Of a stretch of 56,067 bases of DNA, positions 31,973-37,285 are shown piece by piece (positions within the stretch are counted from its first letter, which is position 1; each line of letters starts with the position of its first letter). The stretch is from positions 1-56,067 of the forward strand of contig JBBCAV010000224.1 of the NCBI GenBank assembly GCA_051382305.1, given 5' to 3'. A model generated the notes under the pieces. That model was not told where the DNA came from. It saw only the letters and a program-made list of their open reading frames with translations, and did no database searches. The stretch is from Bdellovibrionota bacterium FG-2 (GTDB lineage Bacteria > Bdellovibrionota > UBA1018). A program made the position numbers and the translations under genes.

Positions 31973-32542
31973 CTAAGGCAGTCTCACGACAAAACCCGCC
32001 GTCGTCTGATATTCGTTGTTTCGGAGCAAATGAAAATCATTAATAACTGCCACCACATCAGCTGTAAATGCAAACTTTGAGCTGAGCGCGACGCGAAACC
32101 CCGCGCCCCCATAAGGCCTGATTGTAGTGGGCTCCCAAGTCACAATATTATTGGCGCCGGCAATCTCCTCGTGCTTGTTACGCGAGGCCTGCCCCCCCGC
32201 ACGAGCATACAACCTAAGCAAAGAACTCAACCGCAATCCGGAGCGAAGACCGACCTTTGCCCGATCCGCCGTATCTTTGAAAGTAAGCCCCTGGGCATCA
32301 TAAGTTTCAGAATTCGTCCCGCGGGTGTATTCCCCTTCAAGCGAAAGAAGTAAAACGCCAAGAGTCAGTCTTCCGCCGTAAAAAAATCGTTTTGAACTGT
32401 GTTCCGTAGGACGCAGTTTTCGCACCAACTCATAACCGACTAAGGGCTCAATGCCTAACCGCAAGGGTTCCGCTCTCGCGGGAGCCGAAAAACCGACGAC
32501 GACTAAAGCGCAAACAACGAAGGCGAGAGGGTGGAGTTTCAT
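31973..32542 (-). CDS. Small outer-membrane beta-barrel protein
   Basis: Signal peptide (APARA); PYGGAG; beta-strand pattern; ATG 32542. Confidence 0.65.
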   Translation of the reverse strand: MKLHPLAFVVCALVVVGFSAPARAEPLRLGIEPLVGYELVRKLRPTEHSSKRFFYGGRLTLGVLLLSLEGEYTRGTNSETYDAQGLTFKDTADRAKVGLRSGLRLSSLLRLYARAGGQASRNKHEEIAGANNIVTWEPTTIRPYGGAGFRVALSSKFAFTADVVAVINDFHLLRNNEYQTTAGFVVRLP

Positions 32543-34319: not shown

Positions 34320-35402
34320 TTAATAAGCGTGCGCAGGATGCGCCCCAATGCTGATCACATATTGTGCCAATACTGCATAATCAGAATTCACCTTACCTTG
34401 TGTCACTATTTGATCCGCCTGCAACCTCATTTCCGAAAACTCAGAGGGAAAGAACCCTAGCAGCGCACTCGCCTTGTGTTGTGGGAAAAACTCTTCCGAG
34501 TGAGGAATTCCAAGCCACTCCCCTCGCCCCTCGATCCACCAACGTTGCGCAAATTGATACTGAACCCAACTCGCGACCCCGCCTAGACGCCCCGCAAGCA
34601 CCGACCCGCGGGACTGCAGGTATTCAGTCGACCAAATCAACGCCCGATACTTTCCCCCAATCGCTGGGCGCCATTTGAAAGTGAGATCGCCACCCAACGC
34701 ATAGGACGTCGAATTGAACTGATTGTTCCCTTGCACGCCTGATGCGCCCAGTTCCAGAGTCAGATCATCACTGAGATCCCAAAGATTTTTCCAATGTCCG
34801 AGGGAACCCAAACTTCCTGCTGGCTGAACGCCAAAAAAAGTATCATTGGTCGGACTAAAACCCTGCACAACGAATTCTGAATACCAACTCAAGGGTACCA
34901 AAATGGAGGCAGACACCCCCGCCTCATTCAAGCCCTCACTGCCAAAAAGAGCTTGACTCACCAAGGGAGCGTCGACGAAGGCAAACGCATGGGTATGAAG
35001 TTGATTATGTTTGCCCATTGCAAGCTTCATCTTGCCCGCCCGAAAAGTGACAAACGGCAAGGAAATCGTCTCCAAGTAAACTTCCTCGGGACTGATTCCA
35101 AATCCTGCACTCCCTAGATCTTGGGCAATAGAAAACAATGCGCTCGCCCGAAAATAGGGATCGACATCAGAAACAAACTGCAGTTCCGCCTCTTGAAGCG
35201 ATAATCCACGATGAGGGACCTGATTCGGATCCTCTGAAACGTCAGAACCCCAAGCACCCAAACCCAGAAAGTTTGCACTGATATCCGGATTAAAGGCTTT
35301 ACCTCGAACAACAGCCTGATCTACAGCCCAAGAACTACCAAAAACACACGAAGCACTGCTCACAACGATAAGGGCACTCGCCCAACGACGTTGATTAGAC
35401 AT
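34320..35402 (-). CDS. Outer-membrane metal receptor/porin (plug-less), His-containing C-terminus
   Basis: FNPDIS, EAEL...VDPYF, G..NQLHTH, C-terminal GAHPAHAY; SD aggag before ATG 35402. Confidence 0.75.
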   Translation of the reverse strand: MSNQRRWASALIVVSSASCVFGSSWAVDQAVVRGKAFNPDISANFLGLGAWGSDVSEDPNQVPHRGLSLQEAELQFVSDVDPYFRASALFSIAQDLGSAGFGISPEEVYLETISLPFVTFRAGKMKLAMGKHNQLHTHAFAFVDAPLVSQALFGSEGLNEAGVSASILVPLSWYSEFVVQGFSPTNDTFFGVQPAGSLGSLGHWKNLWDLSDDLTLELGASGVQGNNQFNSTSYALGGDLTFKWRPAIGGKYRALIWSTEYLQSRGSVLAGRLGGVASWVQYQFAQRWWIEGRGEWLGIPHSEEFFPQHKASALLGFFPSEFSEMRLQADQIVTQGKVNSDYAVLAQYVISIGAHPAHAY

Positions 35403-35467
35403 TATATTCTCCTGTAGCAGCAAAAAGCCGCCGCGAATTCTAGTACGATAATTGATACATGCCGGAT

Positions 35468-35770
35468 CTAGGCCGAAACAGGAGGGGCTCTGATGCTAGA
35501 AAGAAACAAAGGCTGAGACGAAATCCCAAAGATTTTTGCGATTTCAACGCGGGCGACAAACGGAAGCCACACCTTGTTTACCACCGTGATAAAAACTCCC
35601 GCAGTCTTCATATCTGCGCAAAGGCAAATATCGCAAGCAGAAGAAACGAGGCTCCCTTGAGCATCAGGCTGATCATGCCGAAAATGCTGCGCGCTGTGAA
35701 TAGGGAGGGCCACGCTTTGAAAGCTAGCGCACAATAATACCAAAGATCCGAGAAACCGAAACCAACGCAT
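35468..35770 (-). CDS. DUF2946/CruR-like leader protein (signal/TM, His cluster, CxxC, C-terminal RAPP)
   Basis: MRWFRFLGSLVLL...HSAQHFRH...CDICLC...IRAPPVSA*; immediately upstream of the metal-uptake operon. Confidence 0.75.
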   Translation of the reverse strand: MRWFRFLGSLVLLCASFQSVALPIHSAQHFRHDQPDAQGSLVSSACDICLCADMKTAGVFITVVNKVWLPFVARVEIAKIFGISSQPLFLSSIRAPPVSA

Positions 35771-35833
35771 AAATTCGATTATTCCACGCCGCTTTTTGAA
35801 ACGCAACCCGGCAAGTATTAAGTAACTGCTATA

Positions 35834-37285
35834 CTACGCTGCGCGCCGGATTTCCTCGGTGATGAAGTGAACATGTTCAAACACACGCGCCTCGACAAAG
35901 ATCTTCATCAAAGCTGGATCGAGTTTCCCTGCCCGTACATCTTGATCCAAGATTCTTACCGCCCGCTCCCAGGCTACGGCATGTTTATAGGAACGATCCT
36001 GCGAAGTCAGCGCATCAAAAATATCACAAATCGTTAGAATCCTACTTTGAATCGGAATCTCAGACGAAGGAAGACGACAAGGATACCCGCTCCCATCAAG
36101 TTTTTCGTGATGACGATAGGCAATCTCAGGGACTTGATCCAAGCCCCTACTCCAAGGAACACGTTTTAGAATTTCATAGGTGTGCGATACATGCCGCTCA
36201 ATCTCCACGCGCTCCAGGTTGGTTAGCGAGCCTCTTCCAATAGAGAGTTGCTCTTGTTCCCGAGCATTGAGAACCTCTAGTACATCGCCCTCTTCCGTTC
36301 TCACAATGACTGAGGTGATCCCTTCAAGAACTTTTTCAACGGAAGTAAAAAGCACGTTGGGCTCGTTTGCCGTTTGAATCAGTTTCCAAGAGTTGTCAAT
36401 TTTGTTGATCTCCTCCGAAATATTGCGACCCGTTTGCGATTCTTGTCGCTTGAGCTCCGCACGCATGAGTTTAAGCCGCATATGAATGAGTTCGAGATCC
36501 CAAGGGTAAAGCTTCTTTTCTTTGTTTAGGACATTTTCACGAACCGAGATTTTGCCAATATCATGCAAAACGGCGGCATAACGTAGCTCACGAATTTGAA
36601 GAGGAGAAAACTCGGTGCTTCCGTATTCGCCGGTTTGCGTTCGAGACACCGCCTCGGCCAAGGCCACCGAATACTCCGCCACCCGTTGCGAATGGCCCGA
36701 AGTCACAGGGTCGCGGGCTTCAACGGCGGTCACACACGCTTTAACAAACCCCTCCAAAAGGCGCTCTTGTTCTTCAAGCAAAAGACTGTTTTCAATTGCA
36801 AGCGCAGCCTGCCCAGCCACACAAGATACGAGACGCTCATCGCGCTCATCAAACTCAGGCTCGGCACTGCCTCCTGGAAATGGCAATTTGTTCAAGAGCT
36901 GTACTACGCCCACAAGATCCCCACGAGGCGTCACAAGAGGCGCCGAGAGGATGTTTCTCGTGGTATAGTTCAAAAGCCGATCCACACGCTTTTTGCCGGC
37001 CGCGTCCTTAGAAAATGATTCTTTTTGAGAACAACGAGTTTGGGCCGTCCGCCCCACAAGTGAAGACTCATCGATAGGAAATTTCAAATAGCTCACTTCT
37101 TCTGGCACTTGATGGAGTCGAATGCTTCGTGTGATCATGGACTCGAAAACGAGGTACTCCACGCCTCTCGCATCTTTATGCAAAGTAAAGATCGAGCCCC
37201 CATCGCAGCCACACAAATCAATGAAAGAGCCTAAGATTGTCTGCAATAGTTTAGGCAGATCTGTCCCGGAAGTTTCCACAAGCAA
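35834..37285 (-). CDS. GAF + HD-GYP phosphodiesterase
   Basis: GAF (Y.TRNILSAPL..GVVQLLNK), GHSQRV, HDIGK, HHEKLDGSGYP. Confidence 0.9.
   Translation of the reverse strand: MLVETSGTDLPKLLQTILGSFIDLCGCDGGSIFTLHKDARGVEYLVFESMITRSIRLHQVPEEVSYLKFPIDESSLVGRTAQTRCSQKESFSKDAAGKKRVDRLLNYTTRNILSAPLVTPRGDLVGVVQLLNKLPFPGGSAEPEFDERDERLVSCVAGQAALAIENSLLLEEQERLLEGFVKACVTAVEARDPVTSGHSQRVAEYSVALAEAVSRTQTGEYGSTEFSPLQIRELRYAAVLHDIGKISVRENVLNKEKKLYPWDLELIHMRLKLMRAELKRQESQTGRNISEEINKIDNSWKLIQTANEPNVLFTSVEKVLEGITSVIVRTEEGDVLEVLNAREQEQLSIGRGSLTNLERVEIERHVSHTYEILKRVPWSRGLDQVPEIAYRHHEKLDGSGYPCRLPSSEIPIQSRILTICDIFDALTSQDRSYKHAVAWERAVRILDQDVRAGKLDPALMKIFVEARVFEHVHFITEEIRRAA

Follow-up and report, generated by a model that had tools for sequence, protein, structure and literature searches.

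The closest described relatives of the system analyzed here are small exported leader peptides that arrest the ribosome. CruR (Bp2923) of Bordetella pertussis, the prototype of DUF2946 (PF11162), was defined by an export signal, a CXXC motif, a RAPP motif separated from it by 45 intervening residues, and the first place in metal operons. The spacing between both motifs was reported to be kept within 1–2 residues in more than 2,000 proteins, and CXXC as well as RAPP were required for the copper control of a TonB-dependent transporter, the output being a combination of arrest relief and Rho-dependent termination (PMC9426467). In vitro, CruR was found to arrest with Pro3 in the P site and Pro4 in the A site, and the arrest at RAPP/RGPP was described as robust and EF-P-refractory (PMC12992588). 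CutF of Rhodobacter capsulatus stalls on copper binding, and the stall was reported to melt a stem-loop over the ribosome binding site (RBS) of cutO (PMC9973294; 10.1101/2025.02.05.636593). In this study, a leader open reading frame (ORF) was analyzed in a stretch of 56,067 nucleotides (nt) of Bdellovibrionota bacterium FG-2 (contig JBBCAV010000224.1; this whole stretch is called the window), where it precedes the genes of a porin, a ZnuA-type metal-binding protein and an ABC-3 permease. Judged from its sequence, the leader is very probably an arrest leader of the CruR/CutF type that regulates this operon. With reasonable confidence, the best explanation of the locus is that the nascent chain senses a metal, probably zinc, and that the stall would unmask the RBS of the porin gene.

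The leader ORF encodes 100 amino acids (aa) with the layout MRWFRFLGSLVLLCASFQSVA / LPIHSAQHFRH...CDICLC...IRAPPVSA (Table 1). An in-frame TTG at position 35806 would lengthen it by 12 residues to 112 aa. By inspection, the N-terminus MRWFRFLGSLVLLCASFQSVA was found to consist of a basic start, a hydrophobic core of 16 residues and an S-V-A/L site, and cleavage after S-V-A is likely. The distance between the CxxC pair and Arg94 is 44 intervening residues. The next gene starts with an ATG at position 35402, leaving a gap of 65 nt behind the leader stop. An earlier note on this DNA had listed the 100-aa ORF, its motifs with the position of RAPP, and the distance of 65 nt to the next gene, and all of these were found again when the minus strand was re-read.

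Like CruR, the leader is the first gene of a metal-uptake operon and carries an export signal and a CxxC motif. The distance between the motifs is very similar (44 compared to 45 residues in CruR), and RAPP is found three residues before the end, as in Bp2923. The expected polarity would also be the same, since a default stall should keep the uptake genes on and the metal should turn them off. In contrast to CruR, the leader is not matched by PF11162 and has an additional invariant HxxxH pair. Where CruR is followed by the genes of a TonB-dependent transporter and a PepSY protein, the leader is followed by those of a porin, a ZnuA-type protein and an ABC-3 permease. The gap to the next gene is shorter (65 nt compared to 162 nt), and neither a rut site nor a terminator could be recognized in it. 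The RAPP codons are predicted to pair with the RBS of the next gene, and the metal is probably zinc, not copper.

For the identification of related leaders, several searches were combined. A single-sequence word-index protein search retrieved only the leader itself. No Pfam family was identified at E ≤ 1, and the two weak and irrelevant matches in NCBIfam (E 0.018 and 0.053) were far under the cut-offs. The six-frame search of 40 related genomes, in which matches above E 1e-3 were left out, resulted in two real relatives, found in G001, a genome of the same genus (44% identity), and in G011, which belongs to a different genus. CxxC and RAPP are present in both relatives, and both are located ahead of the same downstream gene. 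A further match in G013 (E 4.1e-5) was dropped since it is antisense to a transposase gene. The word-index search using the alignment of the relatives yielded six proteins, none of them with a Pfam label or a name, and when 1.84 billion representatives were searched with a profile built from three sequences, 22 proteins were identified at E ≤ 1e-3, all between 93 and 131 aa in length.

The alignment of 22 sequences has six invariant residues (H25, H29, C46, C49, R94, P96); A21, L22 and P97 are conserved in at least 90%. The earlier note had read the motifs as HxxxHxxH, CDICLC and RAPP; of these, H25, H29, C46, C49 and R-x-P-P are conserved, but not H32 and C51. Between CxxC and R[AG]PP the sequence is variable, and no gaps occur there in any of the aligned proteins. 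In a sample of the phylum, a leader match was found in 16 of 401 genomes, 11 of which belong to the family of genera of the window (10 of the 57 others sampled and the genome of the window itself). The pattern of the upstream ORF (uORF) could be identified in 13 of these 16 loci. The distance between CxxC and Arg is 44 residues in 12 of them and 45 residues in one, and all 13 have 1 to 7 residues after RAPP. The conservation of motifs and spacing ahead of homologous operons had been suggested in the earlier note as a check. No uORF was found by pattern in L044, L046 and L051. Two of these loci, L046 and L051, also have no porin, and the match in L051 (E 8e-4, with one TGA) is probably spurious.

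An untranslated chance ORF would be in line with the missing Pfam or NCBIfam match of the leader and with a 92-aa ORF that overlaps it on the plus strand. Against this stands that the frame, the length and the six invariant residues persist across genera down to 21–30% identity, and that the only other frames with this motif combination in the genome are two transposase tails. The six-frame read of the 4.34-Mb assembly resulted in 27,362 stop-to-stop frames of at least 60 aa. R[AG]PP was found anywhere in 132 of them and within 12 residues from the end in 21, and only three of the latter additionally contain a CxxC 35 to 55 residues upstream. These three are the leader ORF and two IS91-like transposase tails. 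Since only three such frames exist in the whole assembly, the motif combination of the leader exceeds chance. On this evidence the leader ORF is a translated, constrained small gene, and a chance origin is extremely improbable. The plus-strand ORF (positions 35459-35737) is probably a shadow of the conserved minus-strand frame. The two transposase tails, located on the contigs C208 and C313, are near-identical (CPDCGG...ARAPP followed by 8 residues) and resemble transposase C-termini, presumably of the IS91-type family.

The leader could also be a stable small periplasmic or membrane protein that binds a metal without regulating anything, for example a chaperone for the porin or the binding protein, with RAPP in a structural role. 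The export signal, the conserved metal ligands and the constant position beside transport genes would be consistent with such a function. However, the region between CxxC and RAPP is not conserved in sequence and fixed in length, which suggests a ruler rather than a fold, and R[AG]PP is located 1–7 residues from the stop in all 13 uORFs found. Proteomes were described as strongly avoiding RAPP outside of arrest peptides (PMC12992588), and both CruR (PMC9426467) and CutF (PMC9973294) were reported to be undetectable as stable proteins. This explanation is therefore regarded as improbable.

The placement of the leader in a protein family was analyzed with PF11162, which has a gathering score of 23.7 bits. 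Among 21 relatives of the leader, 18 match this model at E ≤ 10 and 7 at E ≤ 0.01, and the cut-off is reached by two of them, P0012 (28.3 bits) and P0020 (23.7 bits). In 16 of the 18 cases, the match reaches the C-terminal end of the model (profile position 117); the exceptions end at position 85 (P0006) and position 116 (P0018). The match to DUF2946 that the earlier note had proposed as a check was not obtained for the leader itself, and the homology is visible only via its relatives. Since these relatives, and not the leader, match PF11162, the leader is placed at the fringe of the family. It shares with the CruR/CutF-type leaders the export signal, the CxxC, the near-terminal RAPP, the spacing of about 45 residues and the first operon position. 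By sequence it therefore represents a fringe branch of the CruR/CutF superfamily that is mostly missed by the Pfam model and is marked by the extra invariant HxxxH. What the earlier note had put forward as its best candidate for an undescribed regulatory system is rather a variant of the published CruR/CutF kind (PMC9426467, PMC9973294).

The first gene downstream of the leader encodes a protein for which no match in Pfam or NCBIfam was found, and its relatives match BBP2/OmpL-like families weakly. The model calculated with AlphaFold 2 (AF2) reached a predicted local distance difference test (pLDDT) value of 86.1 and shows a barrel of about 16 strands. The structural neighbours identified by Foldseek are OmpT, chitoporin, OmpK36, OmpF and OmpC, with a template modeling (TM) score of about 0.6 and about 10% identity. 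A TonB-dependent receptor consists of a plug domain and a 22-strand barrel and is typically larger than 600 aa. With 360 aa and about 16 strands in a porin-like AF2 barrel, the gene product is not such a receptor, as which it had been listed before. Five histidines are widely conserved in 19 homologues of the porin: H136, H355 and H358 in all 19, H138 in 18 and H132 in 16. On the basis of the model, the His-lined porin may be a metal-selective pore. The residues H132, H136 and H138 form a cluster K-H-N-x-L-H-T-H in a short helical segment (AF2 helix 130-133), and H355 and H358 belong to a C-terminal motif H-P-A-H-x-Y.

The porin gene is followed by the genes of the ZnuA-family protein and the permease, for which the NCBIfam equivalogs AztC, ZnuA, AztB and ZnuB all remained under their cut-offs. 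Using the porin as query, 20 related loci were found (L013-L032). They originate from Bdellovibrionota and from metagenome-assembled genomes labelled Polyangiales, Binatia, Nitrospirae, Syntrophobacteraceae, Latescibacterota and Pseudomonadota. Of the 19 loci with enough sequence behind the porin, 18 continue with a ZnuA-family gene, and an ABC-3 domain follows in 13 of 15. Conversely, the porin was found next to the leader match in 14 of the 16 phylum loci, and the distance between leader and porin ranges between 31 and 176 nt across 22 loci. In 10 of the 20 porin loci, an upstream ORF on the same strand ends with R[AG]PP, including 8 with CxxC and 2 with CxC, and one further locus has an upstream ORF with CAPC...RSPP. 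Judged from the sequences, the arrangement of porin, ZnuA and permease recurs across Bdellovibrionota and other phyla.

Taken over the whole locus, the earlier reading of a conserved, exported Cys/His protein that ends in RAPP and is the first gene of a metal-uptake operon holds; it is the match of the leader itself to DUF2946, the receptor identity and the status as an undescribed system that had to be given up.

As in SecM, ApdA, ApdP and ApcA, the leader combines an export signal with a C-terminal R-A-(P/G)-P, and pulling force ends the arrest of these peptides. In SecM-secA, a ribosome binding site becomes accessible through the stall, as proposed here. The leader might thus be a secretion monitor, in which pulling by the Sec machinery releases the arrest and reports the capacity of the translocon, and RAPP peptides were in fact first described upstream of sec/yidC genes (PMC12992588). 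But the genes downstream of the leader encode a porin, a ZnuA-type protein and a permease, and not Sec components or YidC, and the known monitors have no metal ligands. The invariant His2Cys2 set would have no role in such a monitor. A secretion monitor is for these reasons considered very improbable.

Bacterial zinc uptake is described as transcriptionally controlled by Zur. The operon resembles the Zur-repressed ZnuABC, AdcABC and AztABCD systems in the ZnuA-family protein with three His ligands and in the ABC-3 permease. It differs from them in that no ATPase gene is part of the operon, a dedicated porin comes first and the leader occupies the position expected for a Zur box. When three of the ABC ATPases of the genome were used as tblastn queries, no ABC ATPase was detected in the 56-kb window, nor on the operon strand in any of the 20 related loci. 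The ZnuC model detected only generic ATPases on other contigs (89 bits compared to a cut-off of 306) in the assembly, which is 85% complete. A Fur-family gene directly behind the permease was found in just two related loci, L020 (7794-8225) and L021 (7727-8179), both without a RAPP leader, which hints at leader and Fur-type repressor as alternative controls. An assignment of these two genes to Zur was not possible, as the Fur and PerR models score higher and all scores are below the cut-off.

Next, the identity of the metal was considered. Among solved structures, the best matches to the binding protein are those of the zinc proteins AdcAII (3cx3), Lbp (3gi1) and Lmb (3hjt). H59, H139, H203 and E252 align with their His/His/His/Glu columns, which we take to be the zinc ligands, whereas Mn and Fe types presumably have a Glu at the third column. 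All 17 operon homologues share H59, H133, H139 and H203. In the leader, the invariant ligand set consists of two His and two Cys. Since the ZnuA-type wiring recurs in many genomes, a metal other than copper, most likely zinc, is a reasonable reading, and zinc as the signal of the leader is given an even chance on these sequence grounds.

The same arrest leader could respond to copper (or to Ni, Co or Cd), with an operon that imports this metal or is shut off by it. CxxC is the copper-binding motif of CruR and CutF (PMC9426467; 10.1101/2025.02.05.636593), and CutF-like proteins were reported to be not all copper-specific, with His-only forms beside HupE/UreJ (PMC9973294). The invariance of the three-His pattern of the zinc-binding AdcAII, Lbp and Lmb in the binding protein argues against copper, and so does the extra invariant His pair that completes the His2Cys2 set. 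In addition, no copper-homeostasis family (PCuAC, YcnI, CopC, multicopper oxidase, PepSY or TonB-dependent transporter) was found in the 68 ORFs downstream of the porin across the 20 loci. Copper or one of the other metals as the signal is thus considered unlikely.

For the arrest, its release by metal, the identity of the metal, the polarity and the unmasking of the binding site, the proposed mechanism draws on CruR and CutF and on the biochemistry of RAPP. The ribosome would arrest on reaching Pro96/Pro97 of RAPP. The CxxC pair would then trail the peptidyl-transferase centre by about 47 residues and the HxxxH pair by about 67–71, which would bring both pairs to the exit of the ribosome-translocon conduit or past it, and the fixed ruler of 44 residues would set CxxC near this exit. 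The arrested ribosome would cover the RAPP codons, which in the free mRNA are predicted to pair with the Shine-Dalgarno site of the porin gene, so that this site would open and porin, ZnuA-type protein and permease could be translated. Plentiful metal would bind to the His2Cys2 site, and the chain would fold and pull, ending the arrest; the ribosome would terminate, the helix re-form and the uptake be shut off. The polarity of CruR, with an intrinsic arrest released by metal, is assumed because in either model, unmasking or termination, the stall represents the on state, which is expected of an uptake operon when the metal is in short supply.

The predicted helix comprises 7 and 4 base pairs (Table 1). 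Its 3′ arm contains ACAGGAG, the Shine-Dalgarno site of the porin gene located 6 nt before the ATG, and its 5′ arm would be covered by a ribosome stalled on Pro96/Pro97. The pairing was calculated to be −18.2 kcal/mol compared to −14.2 kcal/mol for the best decoy, and none of 234 decoy windows from the same locus pairs as well. When the ribosomal footprint was masked, the predicted probability of the binding site being unpaired increased from 0.22 to 0.58 in the window. Across 22 non-duplicate loci, the RAPP window and the binding site of the same locus pair with a mean of −12.26 kcal/mol compared to −9.9 kcal/mol after permutation, a value reached by none of 20,000 permutations, although this figure overstates the significance because the 22 loci are related. 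The outcome was the same when shuffling was done within GC strata. The helix dominates the fold in 10 of the 12 loci that were folded, and the RAPP window is among the best 10% of the decoys from the same locus in 12 of 22 loci. By eye, the flanks of the binding site follow the codon choice: GCUCCG/CGGAGC in L041, CUCCCG/CGGGAG in L039, CCUCCUG/CAGGAGG in L047 and GCUCCUCC/GGAGGAGC in L031.

The mechanism partly corresponds to that of CutF (cutFOG of R. capsulatus), in which an mRNA structure shielding the next ribosome binding site is melted, as predicted here. CutF controls a detoxifying multicopper oxidase and copper induces the stall, whereas here an uptake system is controlled and the metal should release the stall. 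The shielding stem-loop of CutF is located in the gap, whereas one arm of the helix found here consists of the RAPP codons.

A number of observations weigh against the proposed reading. With respect to the family, PF11162 does not match the window leader even at E ≤ 10, and its six-frame search of the whole assembly gave zero matches. No uORF of this type was found in 8 of the 19 evaluable porin loci; the twentieth has too little upstream DNA. Three Fur-family genes are located elsewhere in the genome of the window, leaving room for ordinary Zur control. Concerning the metal, the fourth ligand E252 is kept in only 13 of 17 homologues of the binding protein, its matches among solved structures also include Mn and Fe binders, and CxxC is the classical Cu(I) motif, all characterized family members sensing copper. 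As to the helix, the RAPP window is no better than decoys from the same locus (q > 0.2) in 7 of 22 loci, and masking of the footprint increases the accessibility by at least 0.2 in only 5 of 22 loci (mean 0.26 to 0.35). The whole-region fold of the window is no more stable than shuffled sequences (z = 0.45). Pro-Pro codons are anti-Shine-Dalgarno-like by nature, and the native codons show no clear advantage over synonymous ones: the fraction of synonymous variants that pair at least as well ranges between 0.03 and 0.67 across the loci (6.2% in the window), resulting in a combined value of about 0.06 by Fisher's method.

The weakness of this synonymous-codon test leaves room for a transcriptional output, in which the stall of the same arrest leader blocks Rho or an intrinsic terminator in the gap, release allows transcription to end ahead of the porin gene, and the helix is a by-product of the Pro-Pro codons. 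Such a mechanism was shown for CruR (PMC9426467), and a hairpin followed by a U-run was found behind the uORF in G001 and in the gap of L026. In G001 (L002, identical to L013; L002:1845-1875), the structure GGCCUAAGUUUAGGCC UUCAUUUU lies right after the leader stop; none is present in the window, so that the output layer may not be the same in close relatives. Terminator-like sites are limited to 2 clear and 2 doubtful cases in 22 gaps, and the pairing between the RAPP codons and the own binding site is locus-specific. In the window, the gap is shorter than the 162 nt of B. pertussis and has neither a terminator-like site nor a C>G bias (C 0.20, G 0.23), for which reason an output of the termination type is less likely there. 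Since the gap of G001 carries a hairpin with a U-run, both outputs may exist within the branch. The transcriptional alternative is rated as rather unlikely for the window; from the predicted folds, an output by unmasking of the binding site rather than by termination of transcription is slightly favoured.

With respect to novelty, arrest leaders of this kind are already known, and it is the wiring to a ZnuA-type importer that appears to be new. In the searchable literature, no description was found that links such arrest leaders to ZnuA-type importers; further supplements may list more. The supplementary files of PMC9973294 and PMC9426467 that were searched contain no ZnuA, PF01297, ABC-3 or Bdellovibrio, while other files may list such neighbours. 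The word "zinc" is absent from the main texts of PMC9973294 and PMC12992588. uORFs of this kind are already contained in a bulk supplementary list, of which the two rows examined encode genes of about 400 aa (PMC12992588), and a table of the Caulobacter Zur regulon includes a DUF2946 gene before czrCBA (PMC4176598). A tentative interpretation is that the leader represents the first zinc-sensing nascent-chain switch. It would be a His2Cys2 arrest peptide whose RAPP codons are the anti-Shine-Dalgarno partner, combining sensor, ruler and translational switch in one ORF and working alongside Zur or in its place, in Bdellovibrionota as well as in several further phyla.

If this is true, a nascent-chain sensor would add a second, translational layer to the control of zinc uptake that reads the metal level outside the cytoplasm, and the principle of CruR and CutF would be extended from copper to zinc. 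Leaders of this branch go unannotated because most of it is missed by the Pfam model. The ORF of 100 codons with a 65-nt gap and a helix of 7+4 base pairs is a compact test system that could show the metal-triggered release of a RAPP arrest. With regard to the entry of zinc through the outer membrane, both the His-lined porin and the pair of ZnuA and permease that lacks an ATPase deserve attention.

For the analysis of the promoter, the sequence upstream of the leader was read and compared with G001. The promoter-like site ends 7 nt before the leader ATG, with no Shine-Dalgarno site in between, which fits a leaderless or nearly leaderless mRNA as judged by sequence. Both hexamer blocks are identical in G001 and are part of an identical stretch of 27 nt, whereas the identity of the ORF is only 44%. 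The consensus promoter scan did not list this site, because the first hexamer matches only 3 of 6 bases. The predicted site agrees with the leaderless-type promoter of its own that had been assigned to the leader in the earlier note, where a TAGAAT in the gap had been raised as a possible internal promoter; no site in the gap was found by the promoter scan, and TAGAAT is not conserved in G001. In the upstream region (35778-35830 of the window, minus strand; L002:1455-1500), the 27-nt block ATACTTGCCGGGTTGCGTTTCAAAAAG and the block TGGAATAAT are identical in the genome of the same genus, which suggests a promoter and a possible operator.

Table 1. Positions of the leader, its motifs, the putative regulatory elements and the downstream genes in the window.
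Feature	Position	Strand	Details
Leader ORF, CruR/CutF-like exported arrest peptide (putative)	35468..35770	minus	ATG 35770, stop 35470-35468, 100 aa
Export signal, residues 1-21, MRWFRFLGSLVLLCASFQSVA	35708..35770	minus	inspection and alignment of relatives
H25-x3-H29 pair within HSAQHFRH (HxxxHxxH)	35684..35698	minus	invariant in 22/22
C46-x2-C49 pair within CDICLC	35624..35635	minus	invariant in 22/22
R94-A-P-P97 motif, AGA GCC CCT CCT	35480..35491	minus	followed by V-S-A and stop (3 codons before stop)
Promoter-like site, TTGCGT (35806-35801), 17-nt spacer, TG-AATAAT (−10, 35783-35778)	35778..35806	minus	reading and identity in G001
Intergenic region, 65 nt	35403..35467	minus	no terminator- or promoter-like site found by scan
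Masking helix, 5′ arm, CUCCUGU (35484-35478) and CGGC (35475-35472)	35472..35484	minus	predicted fold
Masking helix, 3′ arm, GCUG (35421-35418) and ACAGGAG (35415-35409)	35409..35421	minus	predicted fold
Porin-like outer-membrane barrel, 360 aa, conserved His	34320..35402	minus	AF2 and Foldseek
ZnuA-family periplasmic metal-binding protein, 302 aa	33399..34307	minus	PF01297 at 7.5e-46
ABC-3 family metal permease, 282 aa	32547..33395	minus	PF00950 at 2.1e-24; AztB/ZnuB-like below cut-off
Small outer-membrane beta-barrel gene, start MKL 32542	31973..32542	minus	OMP_b-brl 4e-06, below cut-off

The small beta-barrel gene begins 4 nt past the permease stop and is also present in G001. It is probably the last gene of the operon.

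In two of the porin loci, L026 (4343-4651, labelled Binatia) and L029 (4308-4634, labelled Syntrophobacteraceae), the ORF before the same porin contains a different sensor part (LPLHFH...C-x-C...GARTQTG) with the same IRAPP ending. These sequences suggest that the RAPP arrest module occurs together with varying ligand modules.

Upstream of the leader, a gene with GAF and HD-GYP-type (HD_5) domains (35834-37285, minus strand) ends 63 nt before the leader ATG. This gene is also a neighbour of the leader in G001.

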